Shown here one piece after another: positions 9,579 to 20,259 of a stretch of 64,000 bases of DNA. The stretch's first letter is position 1; every line of letters begins with the position of its first letter. The DNA comes from Escherichia coli (GTDB taxonomy: Bacteria; Pseudomonadota; Gammaproteobacteria; Enterobacterales; Enterobacteriaceae): assembly GCF_002854065.1 (NCBI RefSeq), contig NZ_CP024147.1. The stretch is one strand, 5' to 3'. The translations under genes and the position numbers were made by a program. The notes beneath the pieces are model-generated. The model did not search any database and was not told where the DNA came from. It worked only from the letters and a program-made list of their open reading frames with translations.

Positions 9579-10682
9579 TTACGCCAGTTGACGAAGCATC
9601 CGACGCAGCGGCTCCGCGGCCCCCCACAGCAGCTGGTCGCCCACGGTAAAGGCTGACAGGAACTCTGGTCCCATATTCAGCTTACGCAGGCGGCCTACCG
9701 GCGTGGTCAGCGTGCCGGTAACGGCAGCTGGGGTTAGCTCACGCATAGTGATTTCCCGATCGTTCGGAACGACTTTCGCCCACGGATTGTGTGCAGCCAG
9801 CAGTTCTTCCACGGTCGGAATAGACACATCTTTTTTCAATTTAATAGTGAATGCCTGGCTGTGGCAGCGCAATGCCCCGACACGCACACATAAACCATCT
9901 ACCGGAATTACGGAAGATGTGTTGAGGATCTTGTTGGTTTCCGCCTGCCCTTTCCACTCTTCGCGGCTCTGACCGTTATCGAGCTGTTTGTCGATCCACG
10001 GAATCAGGCTACCCGCCAGCGGCACGCCAAAGTTATCCACCGGCAGCTCACCGCTACGGGTTAAGGTTGTGACTTTGCGTTCGATATCGAGAATAGCAGA
10101 GGACGGGGTCGCGAGTTCATCTGCTACATGGCCATACAGATGGCCCATCTGGGTTAATAACTCACGCATATGTCGCGCACCACCGCCGGAAGCGGCCTGG
10201 TAGGTTGCAACGGACACCCAATCAACAAGATCATTGGCGAATAAACCACCCAACGACATCAACATCAGGCTTACGGTACAGTTACCGCCAACAAAAGTCC
10301 TGATGCCATTATTTAATCCGTCGGTAATGACGTCCTGATTGACGGGGTCAAGAATGATGATGGCGTCATCTTTCATGCGCAGAGACGATGCTGCGTCAAT
10401 CCAGTAACCCTGCCATCCGCTTTCACGAAGCTTTGGATAGATTTCGTTGGTATAATCGCCGCCCTGACAGGTCACAATGATATCGAGGGCCTTTAGCGCC
10501 TCCAGATCAAAGGCATCCTGAAGTGTGCCAGTGGTTCCGCCAAAAGACGGCGCAGCCTGACCAAGCTGAGAAGTAGAAAAAAAGACAGGGCGAATGGCGT
10601 CGAAGTCGCGCTCTTCAACCATGCGTTGCATGAGAACGGAGCCGACCATACCGCGCCAGCCGATAAAACCAACATTTTTCAT
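9579..10682 (-). CDS. asd: aspartate-semialdehyde dehydrogenase
   Basis: ORF 9579..10742; ATG at 10680-10682 gives [17 protein letters not shown] (Rossmann N-terminus); 20-codon upstream extension judged spurious. Confidence 0.94.
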
Positions 10683-10873: not shown

Positions 10874-11467
10874 ATGAATGAAATCATTTCTGCAGCAGTT
10901 TTATTGATCCTGATTATGGATCCGCTCGGAAACCTACCTATTTTCATGTCCGTACTGAAACATACTGAACCGAAAAGACGGCGGGCAATCATGGTGCGAG
11001 AGTTGCTTATTGCTCTCCTGGTGATGCTGGTGTTCCTGTTTGCGGGTGAGAAAATTCTGGCATTTCTCAGCCTACGAGCAGAAACCGTCTCCATTTCTGG
11101 CGGCATCATTCTGTTTCTAATTGCCATTAAGATGATTTTCCCCAGCGCTTCAGGAAATAGCAGCGGGCTTCCGGCAGGTGAAGAGCCATTTATCGTGCCG
11201 CTGGCAATTCCGCTGGTCGCCGGGCCAACTATTCTCGCCACGCTGATGTTGTTGTCTCATCAGTACCCGAATCAGATGGGACATCTGGTGATTGCTCTGC
11301 TGCTGGCCTGGGGCGGCACCTTTGTCATCCTGCTACAGTCTTCGCTATTTTTACGTCTGCTGGGCGAGAAAGGGGTGAACGCACTTGAACGCCTGATGGG
11401 ATTGATTCTGGTGATGATGGCAACCCAGATGTTCCTCGACGGCATTCGAATGTGGATGAAGGGGTAA
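10874..11467 (+). CDS. yhgN: MarC-family (UPF0056) inner membrane protein
   Basis: 197-aa hydrophobic ORF MNEIISAAVLLILIMDPLGNLPIF...; divergent from asd. Confidence 0.9.
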   Translation: MNEIISAAVLLILIMDPLGNLPIFMSVLKHTEPKRRRAIMVRELLIALLVMLVFLFAGEKILAFLSLRAETVSISGGIILFLIAIKMIFPSASGNSSGLPAGEEPFIVPLAIPLVAGPTILATLMLLSHQYPNQMGHLVIALLLAWGGTFVILLQSSLFLRLLGEKGVNALERLMGLILVMMATQMFLDGIRMWMKG

Positions 11468-11473
11468 GGTTCA

Positions 11474-11517
11474 AACAGGTGCTGCACACAACCAGACGCG
11501 GCACCTGTTTTATTACC
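11474..11517. terminator. hairpin plus T-run between convergent yhgN and the DprA-like gene (likely bidirectional terminator)
   Basis: Arms aaacaggtgc (11474-11483) and gcacctgttt (11501-11510), followed by ttttatt. Confidence 0.5.
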
Positions 11518-12715
11518 TGAACTGATAATGACCTTCGCCCAATCGGATAACCCTTCCCTCTTCTTCTGCGCGGTTCAGCCACACACTAATTTGTTCGATG
11601 GTTAAACCAGTACAAGACGCCAGCCTTTCAATACTTATCGATTCCTTTGCAAGGATCGCCAGTTCCGCCACAAAGAGTTGATAAAAATCGACAGGCGTAT
11701 ACGCGGGCATTACTGCGTAATTTGCGTCATCTTCATGCAGCGAAAACAGTTCTGGTTGAGCGTTACGGAGTGCTCTGTCATACATCAGCCCAGGAACGTC
11801 TGGCAGTCTGATCGTCACATTCTCAGCCTGTTCAGCACTCCATGACGCCCCATTTTCTACTAATCGTGAATTGGCTGATTGCATATCCTGATTTGGTTTA
11901 ACCTGCACAGGCAGCCACTGATGTTTTAATGCCTCCATCGCCCCGGTTATCGTTCCACCGGTCATTCCCGCACGTACAACCATTGCGCTTTCAGCAAGGC
12001 AATAAATATATTTATTTCGCGCCATCGCATTGCCGACGGTGAAACGTACCTCTGGGTAAAACGGCGAAATCAACACCAGGTTGCCTGCTATAAGCCCTTC
12101 ACGCCATTTCACTAACGTACTCGTTTTTAACAAGCTATCAGCTAATACGCCAACGGCAGTTCCCCCGGCCTCCAGTACCGACGCCATTGCACATTCATCA
12201 ATACCTCGCGCACCACCAGAGATAACGCAAATCCCCTGTTGGGCCAGTTTCGCGGCCAGTTGTTGGGTATAGCGCAAATCGTCAGTCGGAGCATCTCGCG
12301 AGCCAACAATCGCCATACCTTCCGCTTGCAGTAATGCTTTATTCCCGCAGCCAAATAAAACGGGAGGTGCATCCGTTCGCAATCGGTTTTTCAAGCGAAC
12401 GGGATAATCAGCATCTCCGCGGGTTAAGATCCATAAACCGGCGCGTTGCCACTTATCTACCGCCAACGCCAGACTATGACCACGCGCCAGCAAGCCAAGA
12501 ATACGCTCCTGAGAAATACGCGGATCGCTCCAGCCTGTAAGTTTCTCTTGCGGTTGCGGCACCAGAAGCTCGGCGGGACTGATACGTTGGTGCTTCAGCC
12601 ATAATGCAAACTTCCCCCATTCACTATTACTAAGAGGTTTATACTCACTCGCCGCCGCGCGAGAAAAATCGCTGGTTAGCAGGAGAGTTGCTTGTGCATT
12701 GGCTGAAAGATTCAT
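11513..12715 (-). CDS. DprA/Smf-like (DNA-processing protein A family) protein
   Basis: ORF 11513..12808; DprA Rossmann-core signature ...IVGSRDAPTDDLRYTQQLAAKLAQQGICVISGGARGIDECAMASVLEAGGTAVGVLADSL... Start set at ATG 12713-12715, which overlaps the upstream TGA (12715-12717) by 1 nt; alternative start 12808. Confidence 0.75.
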   Translation of the reverse strand: MNLSANAQATLLLTSDFSRAAASEYKPLSNSEWGKFALWLKHQRISPAELLVPQPQEKLTGWSDPRISQERILGLLARGHSLALAVDKWQRAGLWILTRGDADYPVRLKNRLRTDAPPVLFGCGNKALLQAEGMAIVGSRDAPTDDLRYTQQLAAKLAQQGICVISGGARGIDECAMASVLEAGGTAVGVLADSLLKTSTLVKWREGLIAGNLVLISPFYPEVRFTVGNAMARNKYIYCLAESAMVVRAGMTGGTITGAMEALKHQWLPVQVKPNQDMQSANSRLVENGASWSAEQAENVTIRLPDVPGLMYDRALRNAQPELFSLHEDDANYAVMPAYTPVDFYQLFVAELAILAKESISIERLASCTGLTIEQISVWLNRAEEEGRVIRLGEGHYQFR

Positions 12716-14822
12716 CAATTTTTTACCGAGGTAGAAGCAAGGGCAAGAGGATAAACCGTCGGGCAACCTGCCTGGCGTAACAGTGCTGTCAGAACTGTCA
12801 GCGTCCATGCAGAATCCACGATATCGTCAACCAGCAACGCCGGACCAGGCATCAAAGGAGGGGTAATCACAAACGCCCCGTCGAGATTTTGACACTGGTG
12901 GAAACGGTTTTGCTGCATTTTCTGCGGTGGATTGTCCACGACTTTTTCAATGGCATCAATAATAGGTAAGCCAAGTTTCGCCGCCAGTCGCCGGGCAAAA
13001 TCAGGAACCAGGTCGAGGTGCTTTAATGAAGGAACGCAGCATACCCAGGTTGGTTCAGGATGCGGATTCCAGCGTTGGCGAACCATTTCCGCACATGCCT
13101 CCACCAGTTCATCACTGAATCGCCCCGTTTTTTTCTCCTGTGCTACCTGCTTTCCCCACCCGGAATCTCCCCAACGAGAAAGGATTCGCCCCGTAGATCC
13201 TTGTAAAATCGCAGGCAAGTTCCCTTTAAATCCGTATTGCGTAAAAGCCCCAGCTGCCACCTGTTTATTGAGATTTAATGACAGGTCAGCGTGTTTAATA
13301 AATAAGTTTGCCGCATGGAGTAAGCCGCTATCAATGTCGGGCGACAACAACGGATGCTGAAGACAACTGCTACATTTACCACAATGTTCGGCACCTGGCT
13401 CATCGAGTGCGCGGCGCAGAAATTGCATTTTGCACTCCTTGGTCGTGATATAGCTTTCAACGTCTGCCAGCTCACTTTTTCTCTGATTCATCAAATGGTT
13501 AATTCGTTCATGGTCAGGAGAAAAACTGACAATTGTTCTGCGCCATAATTTCTCGGTATACACCACAGGCGATGGATTTTCAGCTACCAATAATTTCAGT
13601 GCTTTTTCTATTTGCCCATAACGGAGATTCGTCCGTTGTTCAATGCCTCGTAAGGTAAGACCGTCATTCACGCTAAGTACGTTGAGTATTTCATGAATTT
13701 GCGCCTCCGCAGGAAAGGCGCTTTCACGGAAGAATTTATGAATAGCACGGTCTTCACTGCCGCAAAGCAGTATGCCAACAGCAGAATCGATACCGCGACC
13801 GGCACGCCCCACCTGTTGGTAGTAACCAACTATCGAACCTGGCATCTGGTAATGAATAACAAACCCCAAATCCGGTTTGTCAAAGCCCATTCCCAGCGCC
13901 GTTGTCGCAACCAGCACTTTAATTTTATTTGCCAGCAACGCCTGCTCCAGATATTCCCTGGCAGTATTAGAATCTTCCGCGCCTTCACAAGTCACGCCGC
14001 TGTAGTAAGCAAATGCACTGATACCATTTTTCCTTAACCACTCGGCGACAAGTTCGGCATCGCGAGTAGTCAGGGTATAAACAATTCCCGATTTGGAAAA
14101 CTGAGGGAAAACTGAGGGATAACCGTTGCTAACCATGCCAGACGGGATGACTGTTCACCTAAGACTAAGGCATCAAGCGCCAAACTTTCGCGAGCCAGCG
14201 TTCCACGCTGAATCACAATGTCACCCAATTGCTGACGGATATCCTCAACGACACGGTTATTCGCTGTCGCGGTTGTACCCAGAACAGGGGTATTCGCAGG
14301 TAGTTGGCGCAAAATATCTAATATACGTCGGTAATCCGGGCGAAAATCGTGGCCCCAATCAGAGATGCAGTGCGCCTCGTCGACCACAAGCAAGCCAATA
14401 TGATCGGCTATAGGATATAAAACCGTTTCGATAAAGTCCTGGTTTGCCAAACGTTCCGGGGAAACCAGCAAGCAATCGACCTCACCTTGCAGCAACTTAT
14501 CGCTAATGCGCTGCCATTCTTCTCTGTTTGTAGAATTCAACGTTTCAGCCGTAATACCTAACCGTTCAGCGGCGGCAACCTGGTTACGCATCAGGGCAAG
14601 CAAAGGAGAGATGATAATTGTCGGGCCAGCGCCGCGATCGCGGAAGATTTTACTGGCGATGAAGTACACAGCACTTTTCCCCCAGCCAGTGCGTTGGACA
14701 ACCAGCAGTTTTCGCCGTTGGTTCACCACCGCGTCTATGGCTTCCCATTGCCCTTCCCTGAAAGTAGCGGTGGTATTTCCTAACATCCGCTGTAAAAGCA
14801 ATTCAGCTGCGTGCTTTTCCAT
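12715..14822 (-). pseudogene. RecQ-like helicase fused to a C-terminal ComF/PRTase-like domain, frameshifted by an 11-bp tandem duplication
   Basis: Two overlapping minus-strand ORFs (14070..14822 and 12715..14136). The N-terminal part carries Walker A QRTGWGKS and DEAH-type VVDEAHCISDWGHDFRPDY; the C-terminal part carries the helicase C-domain (VATTALGMGFDKPDLGFVIHYQMPGSIVGYYQQVGRAGRG), a CxxCxxC cluster and a PRPP-binding-like ALLVDDIVDS segment. Deleting one 11-bp copy in silico joins them into a ~696-codon ORF (...ATVIPQFSKSGIVYTLTTRDAE...). Confidence 0.75.
14097..14118. repeat. perfect 11-bp tandem duplication (aaaactgaggg x2) causing the helicase frameshift
   Basis: Copies at 14097-14107 and 14108-14118 read directly from the sequence. 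Confidence 0.9.
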
Positions 14823-14922
14823 CTTTATCTCCTGCGATCTTTAGGCAGTGATTAGAACGGATTATTTGCAGGTAAATTTGCGAGAGAGATCAAAAAGATG
14901 AAGAGAGGAGAAAAGAGAAATG

Positions 14923-14950
14923 AATTACTGCGAGCAAGCTCGCAGTAATT
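14923..14950. terminator. perfect palindrome (13-bp arms, 2-nt centre) just downstream of gntU; probable gntU terminator, possibly also an operator
   Basis: aattactgcgagc-aa-gctcgcagtaatt; pyrimidine-rich tract follows on the minus strand; partial direct repeat cgcagtaatt at 14954-14963. Confidence 0.55.
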
Positions 14951-14961
14951 TGTCGCAGTAA

Positions 14962-16302
14962 TTAACTCAACAGCTGGAACGCAATCATCCCAACGATGGC
15001 ACCGACAGTGCCGAGGATGGTTTCCATCATGGTCCAGGTTTTCAGCGTTTCGGCTTCGGTCGCGCCGGTAAATTTACCGAACAACCAGAAACCAGCGTCG
15101 TTAACGTGGCTGACAACAATCGAACCACCGGCGATACAAATCGACAGCGCCGCCATTTGCGCACCGGAGTAGTTCAGTTGTTCAATAACCGGCATCACCA
15201 GTCCCACCGCCGTTAAACAGGCAACGGTTGCAGAACCCTGAATGATGCGCACTGCAGCGGCCAGCACGAAGCAGGTGATGGCAATCGGCAGGCCCATGCC
15301 GGTTAACGCTTCGCCCAGTGCCGGACCTACGCCAGAGTCAACCAGCACCTGTTTGAACACGCCGCCCGCACCAATCACCAGCAGAATGATCCCCGCCGGT
15401 TGCAGCGCGTGACCGCAAATATCCATCACTTTGTCTTTTGGCATGCCCTGACGCATTGCCAGGCCATAAATCGCTACCAGACAAGCAACCAGAATCGCGG
15501 TAAACGGATGACCAATAAACTCGAACCATTCGTAAGCGGTAGAGCCTTCCGGCACAAAACGCGCGGCAATGGTTTTCAGCCCCACCAGCACCAGCGGCAG
15601 CAGGATCAGCGACAGGCTGAATCCGAAGGACGGCATTTTGCCTTCGCCGAGATGCGGCTCGCTGATGTCGTCAGGAATATGCAGCTCAACGTAACGGCTG
15701 ATGAAGTTACCCCACAGCGGCCCGGCAATAATCATTCCCGGAATTGCCGCACACAGGCCAATCAGGATCATCCAGCCAAAATCGGCGTTCATCTGCGATG
15801 CCAGCAGCATTGGCGCTGGCCCAGGCACCAGGAACGCCGCCGCGGCCGCCACGCCTGCGAATAATGGGATTACCAGCTTCACCAGGTTCGTACCGGTGTG
15901 GCGCGCCATTGAGAAAGCAACGCTAATCAGCAGAACAATCGCCACTTCAAAGAACAGCGGTAGCGCACAGACCAGCCCCGCAAGGCCGATGGCATAATGC
16001 GCGCGGCTGTGACCGAAGGATTTGAGCATTTTGACGGCAATCTGATCGACTGCGCCGGTTTCATGTAAGATCTTGCCAAACATAGCTCCCAGGGCGACAA
16101 CCACCGCCAGGAAGCCGAGGGTGCCTCCCATCCCTTTTTCCATCGTCGCTGCGATTTTATCGAGCGGCATACCGGAAAAAAGGCCAGCCCCCATGGACAC
16201 CACCATTAAAGCCAGGAAAGCGTGCATACGCGCCTTCATGACTAAAAACAGCAGCAGTAAAACAGACCCTACTGCTGTTAAAACAAGCGTTAATGTAGTC
16301 AC
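14962..16302 (-). CDS. gntU: low-affinity gluconate permease (GntP family)
   Basis: 446-aa polytopic ORF MTTLTLVLTAVGSVLLLLFLVMKARM... Confidence 0.94.
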   Translation of the reverse strand: MTTLTLVLTAVGSVLLLLFLVMKARMHAFLALMVVSMGAGLFSGMPLDKIAATMEKGMGGTLGFLAVVVALGAMFGKILHETGAVDQIAVKMLKSFGHSRAHYAIGLAGLVCALPLFFEVAIVLLISVAFSMARHTGTNLVKLVIPLFAGVAAAAAFLVPGPAPMLLASQMNADFGWMILIGLCAAIPGMIIAGPLWGNFISRYVELHIPDDISEPHLGEGKMPSFGFSLSLILLPLVLVGLKTIAARFVPEGSTAYEWFEFIGHPFTAILVACLVAIYGLAMRQGMPKDKVMDICGHALQPAGIILLVIGAGGVFKQVLVDSGVGPALGEALTGMGLPIAITCFVLAAAVRIIQGSATVACLTAVGLVMPVIEQLNYSGAQMAALSICIAGGSIVVSHVNDAGFWLFGKFTGATEAETLKTWTMMETILGTVGAIVGMIAFQLLS

Positions 16303-20047: not shown

Positions 20048-20169
20048 GATTTCGTCCTTTTTAAGGTGGTTATTTACACCTTAGCGCAAAGCGGACGTGG
20101 TTCCTACTGGAGTGCGCATAACGAACACAAGCACTTCCCGAGGATAAATTGAGAACGAAAGATCAAAAA

Positions 20170-20259
20170 AAAAGCCAGCACCCGGCTGGCTAAGTAATAC
20201 TGGAAGCAATGTGAGCAATGTCGTGCTTTCAGGTTCTCCGCGAGGGTCTTCCTGATCGC
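20170..20259 (-). ncRNA. ryhB: RyhB iron-sparing small RNA
   Basis: Reverse complement reads GCGATCAGGAAGACCCTCGCGGAGAACCTGAAAGCACGACATTGCTCACATTGCTTCCAGTATTACTTAGCCAGCCGGGTGCTGGCTTTT, ending in a terminator hairpin and U-run; lies in the yhhX-yhhY intergenic region. Confidence 0.9.

Follow-up and report, generated by a model that had tools for sequence, protein, structure and literature searches.

The region between yhgN and gntU in the Escherichia coli DNA analysed here, a stretch of 64,000 nucleotides referred to as the window, can be assigned with high confidence to the chromosomal rqlH-rqlI (PsyrTA) operon of E. coli, a known system that is present in a disabled state. The correct label for its two genes is an rqlH (psyrT) pseudogene and rqlI (psyrA), and the locus constitutes neither a new nor an active defence system.

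The locus and its boundaries

In the ORF list, yhgN ends at 11467 and gntU at 14962, leaving a gap of 3494 bp (11468-14961) where K-12 MG1655 has a 56-bp spacer. A preliminary description of this DNA had put the excess over K-12 at about 3.4 kb, which the comparison bears out. Two minus-strand genes occupy the gap in place of the spacer. A repeat search located an inverted repeat with 13-nt arms and a 12-nt loop (11473-11510) between the convergent stops of yhgN and rqlI; its sequence is missing from the K-12 spacer and so forms part of the inserted DNA, and it is probably a bidirectional terminator. At the opposite end, the 139-bp region upstream of rqlH (14823-14961, minus strand) opens with a perfect 13-nt palindrome just past the gntU stop (14923-14950), found to be terminator-like by a terminator scan and an inverted-repeat search, and continues as an untranslated leader in which an AGGAG Shine-Dalgarno sequence (14833-14829) lies 6 nt 5' of the rqlH ATG at 14822. 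These terminator-like hairpins set the operon apart from both yhgN and gntU. A promoter scan of 11400-15050 returned zero sigma-70 consensus sites and did not locate the rqlH promoter, and an Rfam scan of the whole window found nothing in or beside the locus, its sole match being RyhB at 20166-20230.

Interpretation of the insert as a mobile element was rejected: direct repeats across the locus boundaries and an integrase at the locus were both absent, the GC content (0.45-0.52) resembles that of the flanking DNA, and the K-12 spacer is cleanly replaced.

The rqlH pseudogene and its intact partner

The rqlH pseudogene (12715-14822, minus strand) appears in the window as two ORFs, 14822-14070 (250 codons) and 14136-12715 (473 codons). 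Alignment and a repeat search traced the split to an 11-bp tandem duplication at 14095-14116 (copies at 14095-14105 and 14106-14116), which reads GGAAAACTGAG twice on the plus strand and CCCTCAGTTTT twice on the coding strand. Relative to an intact allele (L001), the extra copy aligns as an 11-base insertion at 14095-14105. The duplication shifts the frame after codon 239, and deletion of one copy yields an ORF of 698 codons. The single protein of about 700 codons described earlier therefore exists once the gene is repaired (698 aa), but not in the window as it stands.

Of the two parts, only the first (14070-14822, minus strand) is predicted to be translated; it consists of 239 native and 11 out-of-frame residues ending at a TGA at 14072-14070, and of the helicase motifs it retains only I (GWGKS, 46), II (DEAH, 148) and III (TATA, 184). 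The out-of-frame 3' part (12715-14094, minus strand; codons 240-698 and the stop) encodes the second helicase lobe, including motif VI, the Cys cluster and the phosphoribosyltransferase (PRTase) domain. Judged by its sequence, rqlH is a pseudogene whose translation would end short of the second helicase lobe, the zinc cluster and the toxic domain, although frameshifting at a low level, or loss of the extra copy, may occur. RefSeq flags the same allele as 'frameshifted' in strain CUWW06, and strain 100416 shares the duplication in an allele that is additionally interrupted by an IS5 insertion. A sequencing error was rejected, because the duplication is common to two independent RefSeq assemblies, each otherwise differing from the window, and its presence in strain 100416 means that it is not the error of one assembly.

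Downstream, the intact rqlI (11513-12715, minus strand) encodes a DprA-like (SLOG/Rossmann) antitoxin of 400 aa, as assigned by PADLOC and Pfam (DNA_processg_A, 6.1e-50). Its ATG (12715-12713) shares one base with the rqlH TGA (12717-12715) in the sequence TGATG (12717-12713), so that both the DprA/Smf-like gene and the 1-nt overlap reported earlier hold. RqlI differs by 0-4 amino acids from the alleles of six other genomes. The gene thus persists as a putative orphan antitoxin gene. Its product is expected to be poorly translated in the source strain, since rqlI has no separate ribosome-binding site and ribosomes would halt 1.35 kb upstream of its start.

Assignment to PsyrTA/RqlHI

Repaired RqlH matches the PADLOC PsyrT model with 1061.7 bits (residues 3-697 on profile positions 5-687 of 689), and RqlI matches PsyrA with 669.1 bits (E = 5.5e-202; residues 1-400 on positions 1-397 of 398). 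Both models are thus matched end to end. In the unrepaired sequence, the N-terminal rqlH fragment covers PsyrT positions 5-241 and the 3' fragment positions 237-687, and the E-values of the three ORFs (2.7e-122, 9.9e-193 and 5.5e-202) exclude a chance match. The fusion of helicase and PRTase had been considered unusual and without a named system; on the contrary, it defines the known PsyrTA/RqlHI family and is not an unusual orphan.

PsyrTA was named from Pseudomonas syringae (Sberro et al. 2013), and a preprint equates it with RqlHI as one system. In the extraintestinal pathogenic E. coli strain F11, rqlH lies upstream of rqlI with overlapping stop and start, and the products are 698 and 400 aa long (Russell & Mulvey 2015; PMC4670107). 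The operon of the source strain shares with that of F11 the species, gene order and protein lengths, and K49, D148 and D663 of repaired RqlH match the residue numbers that Russell & Mulvey give for F11. Orthology with F11 rests on this numbering, on the lengths and on an intact ST131 allele, which was compared in place of the F11 sequence and is 97% identical to repaired RqlH at the amino-acid level. The hallmarks of the family are all present, namely a RecQ-family SF2 helicase with a zinc Cys cluster, a PRTase C-terminus with D663 and a DprA-like partner of about 400 aa, as is the two-gene order, in which the toxin gene lies upstream on the same strand and its end overlaps the antitoxin start. 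The departure, both from F11 and from PsyrTA in general, is that the two genes are not both intact: with rqlH frameshifted, production of the genotoxic PRTase domain is lost. From sequence, then, the locus is a member of PsyrTA/RqlHI by descent, presumably without function.

Domain structure and predicted fold of RqlH

The RecQ-type helicase, Cys cluster and ComF/PRTase-like C-terminus recognized in the preliminary description are all recovered. Pfam models matched repaired RqlH at 2.1e-24 (DEAD), 9.5e-13 (Helicase_C), 0.003 (RecQ_Zn_bind) and, in a weak or marginal match, 0.0087 (Pribosyltran), and the protein passes the cut-off of the RecQ family model TIGR00614 recQ_fam (250.7 bits; cut-off 219.8). 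The zinc-binding cluster consists of C460, C477, C480 and C483 (13434-13363). A PDB sequence search aligned the core with E. coli RecQ (3.5e-53); it returned only RecQ-type cores for RqlH, gave the PRTase domain no match at the sequence level and turned up no structure of PsyrT or PsyrA. For this reason the PRTase domain was approached by structure prediction and a comparison of folds.

The AlphaFold2 model of the C-terminal domain (residues 489-698; 12718-13347, minus strand) has a mean pLDDT of 95.4 and a pTM of 0.91, and shows a type I PRTase fold. All 50 matches listed by Foldseek against the PDB are PRTase-fold proteins, the top one being Helicobacter pylori ComF (7p0h; E = 1.3e-4, TM 0.51, identity 13%). 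The motif V661-D662-D663-I-V-D666-S-A-W-T lies at about 12831-12802, with D663 at 12825-12823, and D662 and D663 are invariant across 48 diverse homologues. The putative PRPP loop, DDIVDSAWT, looks divergent from the loops of purine PRTases.

Distribution among E. coli genomes

Of 5426 complete E. coli genomes, 1650 (30%) carry the locus, always on the chromosome, and it sits at the yhgN-gntU site in every genome inspected for position. It is accordingly an accessory pair and not a core one. The 11-bp duplication occurs in just two of the 1650 locus-bearing genomes (match across the lesion at 99% identity or more). Independent rqlH lesions exist in O157:H7, where a 29-bp tandem duplication interrupts the gene, in O55:H7 and in others; at least 13 were counted in a sample of 60 genomes. 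Among 72,556 plasmids, 11 match the C-terminal domain of RqlH; no phage record does.

Function of the intact system and proposed mechanism

The PsyrTA homologue tested against phages reportedly came from another genus. In F11, RqlH is toxic without RqlI, its toxicity requires the PRTase motif and is abolished by D663A, and loss of rqlI is harmful only when rqlH is present; co-immunoprecipitation of RqlI with RqlH is lost upon removal of residues 510-698 (PMC4670107). PsyrTA is also counted among the two-gene systems with an identified role in phage resistance, and its psyrA deletion was not transformable (preprint). PsyrTA of strain NILS69 caused a growth defect when expressed in K-12, with no protective activity detected. 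A literature search returned mechanism papers on ShosTA, together with surveys, and no later mechanistic paper on PsyrTA itself.

From these data, the locus can be regarded as a candidate phage-defence operon. An intact RqlH would act as a RecQ-family helicase with a genotoxic ComF-like PRTase C-terminus that triggers SOS induction, filamentation and mutagenesis, as shown for F11. RqlI, whose translation would be coupled to the end of rqlH, would bind RqlH in a manner that depends on the PRTase-containing C-terminus of RqlH and neutralise its toxicity, likewise as in F11. Extrapolating from heterologous PsyrTA and the related ShosTA, phage infection may upset the balance between RqlH and RqlI; PRTase activity would then be freed, and the replication of both cell and phage halted, as in abortive infection. 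In the source strain, the 11-bp duplication would limit RqlH to part of helicase lobe 1, conferring neither toxicity nor defence.

Related systems and alternative explanations

ShosTA likewise pairs a PRTase-domain toxin with a DprA-like antitoxin, and filamentation and DNA damage result from both systems. The toxicity of ShosT requires PRPP binding. The kinship to ShosTA-type modules that had been proposed is borne out by the match of RqlI to the ShosA model (4.2e-26), which is far weaker than that to PsyrA, and by its matches to the ShosA structures 8zva and 9vzo in the PDB sequence search. According to the ShosTA papers, however, ShosT lacks a helicase, whereas the PRTase of RqlH is fused to one, and no ShosT model is among the listed PADLOC matches of RqlH, so that the locus is not a ShosTA system. 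ShosA, moreover, neutralises ShosT without binding it, via ssDNA and RecA, while RqlI co-precipitates with RqlH. Mycobacterium smegmatis RqlH (reference 21 of PMC4670107), the source of the helicase residues K49 and D148, also combines a RecQ-like helicase with a C-terminal PRTase, but no toxin-antitoxin behaviour is reported for it, as far as PMC4670107 describes. RqlI is absent from mycobacteria and most Gram-positive bacteria, which carry RqlH alone (PMC4670107).

The preliminary description also drew a parallel with competence. A module analogous to ComFA/ComFC/DprA, in which the helicase-PRTase fusion handles incoming ssDNA and the DprA-like protein loads RecA, is very unlikely. In structure, the C-terminal domain does come closest to H. 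pylori ComF, with which it shares the type I PRTase fold and acidic DD motif, and RqlI does contain a DNA_processg_A domain. ComF is a standalone protein that acts in DNA uptake, whereas in RqlH the domain is joined to a helicase and belongs to a toxin. RqlI also falls below the cut-offs of the DprA equivalogs TIGR00732 (100.4 against 191.15) and NF008007, the E. coli type (77.1 against 495), the helicase is of the RecQ family, and the pair is accessory. The parallel, then, is one of resemblance only. Russell & Mulvey raised it too, but F11 and other ExPEC encode in addition a DprA nearer the canonical one, and the toxicity of RqlH without RqlI is the behaviour of a toxin-antitoxin pair rather than of an uptake machine (PMC4670107). 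A housekeeping role, whether as a RecQ paralogue that serves DNA repair together with an accessory factor or as part of a Dpd-type DNA-modification system outside any conflict, is exceedingly improbable. The alignment of the core with E. coli RecQ, the many DpdF models of PADLOC that match RqlH and the occurrence of RqlH without RqlI in Gram-positive bacteria would fit such a role. Yet the scores for RqlH lie well below the equivalog cut-offs for RecQ (295.2 against 640.2 for TIGR01389; 223 against 1015 for NF008279) and DpdF (146.8 against 550 for NF041063), and the locus is flanked by yhgN and gntU only, with no dpd genes. Its presence varies among strains, its toxin gene was inactivated independently in several lineages, and the harm done by rqlI loss depends on rqlH.

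A further explanation is that the two rqlH ORFs still work, either as a functional split gene that yields separate subunits or joined by programmed ribosomal frameshifting at the duplication, which is rich in T. An in-frame ATG is available to the downstream ORF at 14136, the overlap between the two ORFs amounts to 67 nt, and a TTTT run lies inside the duplication. The distribution led to rejection of this highly improbable explanation, as all but two of the 1650 loci have a single copy and a continuous ORF length. No Shine-Dalgarno sequence was found ahead of 14136, and the break falls between both helicase lobes, leaving the N-terminal fragment without motif VI. RefSeq labels the allele frameshifted, and its gain of IS5 in strain 100416 is as expected for a dead gene. 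The lesions by which different lineages have lost rqlH are for the most part short tandem duplications, a reversible type of change (11 bp in the source strain, 29 bp in O157:H7). They prompt a different account, in which E. coli would switch the costly genotoxic gene off and on by gain and loss of duplications, with the antitoxin kept as insurance, or else the orphan RqlI would be kept for a DprA-like function of its own that is independent of RqlH. Either version seems unlikely.

Implications

Under the preferred reading of a disabled RqlHI operon, the independent inactivation of rqlH, with rqlI intact in the six alleles checked, fits the published genotoxicity of RqlH and suggests that this toxin is often selected against. 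The biochemical target of the PRTase domain attached to the helicase is no easier to pursue in the source strain, whose copy is broken.

Both rqlH fragments match PsyrT strongly, and defence finders based on ORFs could therefore still call PsyrTA in the source strain and in O157:H7. As broken loci can be called in this way, figures for the prevalence of PsyrTA may include dead copies.

Identity of the yhgN-gntU operon

The locus between yhgN and gntU is a pseudogenised copy of a known system, PsyrTA, which the literature treats as one system with RqlHI. The PADLOC PsyrT profile matches two rqlH fragments (2.7e-122 and 9.9e-193) at contiguous profile positions, 5-241 and 237-687, and aligns end to end with repaired RqlH (1061.7 bits), the protein obtained by deleting one copy of an 11-bp repeat in silico. 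The PsyrA profile matches RqlI at 5.5e-202, and together these models settle the identity as PsyrTA. Russell and Mulvey described RqlHI of E. coli F11 as a two-gene operon with rqlH upstream, encoding proteins of 698 and 400 aa, and mutated RqlH residues K49, D148, and D663 (DIVD663) (PMC4670107). Repaired RqlH contains GWGKS with K49, a DEAH motif beginning at D148, and DIVD beginning at D663, and is 97% identical to an intact ST131 allele. Given the profile matches, the F11 lengths and residues, and the ST131 identity, this operon has already been characterised, and the preliminary description was wrong to regard the fusion as unnamed and unusual. What it observed is nonetheless real and its interpretation partly right: its helicase, PRTase, and DprA-like domain calls hold, as does its suspicion of a ShosTA-like defence module.

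Two PADLOC models named DpdF match solely the PRTase end of RqlH (12715-13425, residues 462-698): PDLC02869 (74 positions, ~5e-54) and PDLC02866 (255 positions, 8e-19). Since they match this end alone, some 'DpdF' models apparently derive from RqlH-like fragments, and a PsyrT fragment could be wrongly called DpdF by them.

State of rqlH and rqlI

Three minus-strand ORFs (11513-12808, 12715-14136, and 14070-14822) lie between yhgN (10874-11467, plus), itself preceded by asd (9579-10682, minus), and gntU (14962-16302, minus), which is followed by gntK and gntR. The ORFs at 14822-14070 and 14136-12715 are two pieces of a single helicase gene. Alignment with the intact allele of strain DSM 103246 (locus L001) reveals a single 11-base insertion at 14095-14105. 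GGAAAACTGAG stands twice in perfect tandem at 14095-14116, and the insertion is one of the two copies; deleting one restores an ORF of 698 codons. The repaired product has Pfam DEAD, Helicase_C, RecQ zinc-binding, and weak Pribosyltran matches. The Cys cluster noticed earlier is present (Cys460, 477, 480, and 483), spaced 17/3/3 as in the zinc site of E. coli RecQ.

Translation of rqlH begins at the ATG at 14822, 6 nt downstream of a strong AGGAG site, and yields 239 native residues and 11 foreign ones before it stops at 14072-14070. Helicase motifs I to III are retained in the truncated product, but lobe 2 with motif VI is missing, as are the zinc cluster and the entire PRTase domain. As toxicity requires the PRTase motif in published work and this domain is truncated away, the toxin function of RqlH is lost in the window.

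The downstream gene, rqlI (12715-11513, minus, 400 aa), is intact. Its product matches Pfam DNA_processg_A (6.1e-50) and a SLOG family, and the alleles of six other genomes differ from it at 0-4 residues. RefSeq annotates a 431-aa form starting at 12808 with a 94-nt overlap with rqlH. The start at 12715 is better supported, because positions 1-397 of the 398-position PsyrA profile align to RqlI residues 1-400 and the literature length is 400 aa. This start overlaps the upstream TGA by one base (TGATG, 12717-12713), as had been read from the sequence. Having no Shine-Dalgarno of its own, rqlI depends on this overlap, and its translation would be reduced because ribosomes now stop 1.35 kb upstream.

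The PRTase domain

By itself, the Pfam PRTase match to the RqlH C-terminus is marginal (E 0.0087), and no sequence-level relative of the domain was found in the PDB. Residues 489-698 have 1639 representative homologue clusters, many at the C-terminus of ~700-aa proteins; 48 of these homologues were aligned and the domain was modelled (mean pLDDT 95.4, pTM 0.91). All 50 Foldseek hits listed against the PDB have a PRTase fold, the top among them being H. pylori ComF (7p0h; E 1.3e-4, TM 0.51). In the alignment D662 and D663 are invariant and D666, S667, W669, and T670 nearly so. They lie in the loop DDIVDSAWT, which appears divergent from purine PRTase loops. Model and alignment confirm a PRTase fold with an acidic motif, for which PRPP binding is putative.

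Seven larger metagenomic proteins (913 to 1720 aa; homologue representatives P0014, P0076, P0110, P0111, P0115, P0127, and P0150) carry an RqlH-type PRTase at the C-terminus and may be other fusion architectures.

Proposed function and alternatives

In F11, RqlH without RqlI causes SOS induction, filamentation, growth arrest, and mutagenesis, and its toxicity is abolished by D663A or by deletion of residues 509-690 and greater when the helicase is dead (PMC4670107). The PRTase motif is required for toxicity, yet the PRTase domain alone is non-toxic, and co-precipitation of RqlI with RqlH requires the C-terminal region (PMC4670107). The literature counts PsyrTA with the two-gene systems that take part in phage resistance and reports failure to transform a psyrA deletion; NILS69 PsyrTA expressed in K-12 gave no detected protection and caused a growth defect. 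In ShosTA, called related to RqlHI/PsyrTA, ShosT binds PRPP, this binding is required for toxicity, and purine metabolism and replication are disturbed, with ShosA working via ssDNA and RecA. Intact RqlHI would thus be a toxin-antitoxin or abortive-infection module in which the helicase part tethers or regulates a PRTase effector that DprA-like RqlI may restrain until infection upsets the balance.

The preliminary description also raised competence-type DNA processing by a helicase/PRTase and DprA-like pair. The resemblance has a real basis, for the RqlH C-terminus does have a ComF-like fold and RqlI a DprA-like domain, but RqlI falls under the DprA equivalog cut-offs, the helicase belongs to the RecQ family (250.7 bits against an NCBIfam cut-off of 219.8), and the F11 pair acts as a toxin-antitoxin, so that this interpretation is unsupported. 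A Dpd-type or housekeeping RecQ role was rejected: repaired RqlH is below the cut-offs for DpdF (146.8 against 550) and the true RecQ equivalog (295.2 against 640.2), and the gene context is missing. A programmed frameshift or split gene was likewise rejected, as the duplication occurs in 2/1650 loci and no ribosome-binding site precedes the in-frame ATG at 14136.

Distribution and recurrent lesions

Of 5426 complete E. coli genomes, 1650 carry the locus, in single copy and never on a plasmid, and it occupies the yhgN-gntU position in the seven genomes inspected. Only two of them carry the 11-bp duplication: CUWW06, from wastewater in Thailand, and 100416, from stool in Gambia, the latter also with IS5 within rqlH. 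The window is identical to neither, since RqlI residue 167 is not that of CUWW06 and the IS5 of 100416 is absent; the lesion is therefore a real allele common to a small lineage.

Different lesions occur in O157:H7 (loci L002 and L006), where rqlH has a 29-bp tandem duplication adjoining the equivalent of window position ~12995, together with a 1-bp deletion at that of 14306; its first stop is at codon 203, and rqlI is intact. The rqlH match in O55:H7 DEC5A (H77) spans 2096 nt, one base under intact length, which suggests that the deletion preceded the duplication. Sixty of the 1650 locus-bearing genomes were sampled systematically and scored by rqlH match span: 47 had the intact length (2097 nt), 10 the O157-type span (+28 nt), and one each the O55:H7 span (-1 nt), an ISKpn26 insertion, and a truncation. 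Disruption therefore affects at least 13 of the 60, a count blind to nonsense mutations. Inactivation of rqlH with retention of rqlI in the genomes checked fits a genotoxic gene often selected against. Phylogroup E2 is presumably the O157:H7 lineage; if so, the enrichment of PsyrTA in E2 in a published survey may include dead copies.

The ISKpn26 insertion and the truncation, in genomes H85 (S1-KEN-03-A) and H130 (g1-11), are further independent rqlH disruptions; in the truncated case the gene is split between two places, and 'conjugal transfer protein TraF' is annotated beneath the match. A 100-kb E. coli plasmid (H131, NZ_OX030731.1, 38870-39478) carries a gene for an RqlH-like protein that has diverged to 60% identity across the PRTase domain, so the species also has a second PsyrT lineage, borne on a plasmid.

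Insert boundaries

In K-12 MG1655 the yhgN-gntU stop-to-stop spacer is 56 bp with one hairpin inside; here 3494 bp (11468-14961) take its place, with no likeness to that spacer evident by eye. The GC of the insert (0.45-0.52) is near flank values, and neither direct repeats at its boundaries nor an integrase was found. Each end has a hairpin of its own: one at 11473-11510, where yhgN and rqlI converge and between their stops, and a perfect 13-nt palindrome at 14923-14950, directly past the gntU stop. The latter is most simply the gntU terminator, arrived with the insert.

Three copies of the motif AATTACTGCGA, two direct and one inverted, surround the gntU stop (14923-14963) and make this palindrome. 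The motif is superficially LexA-box-like (TACTG...CAGTA), but its spacer is 12 nt and that of a LexA box 10 nt. The sole Rfam family in the window is an ordinary-looking RyhB small RNA (20166-20230, minus; RF00057, 83.1 bits).
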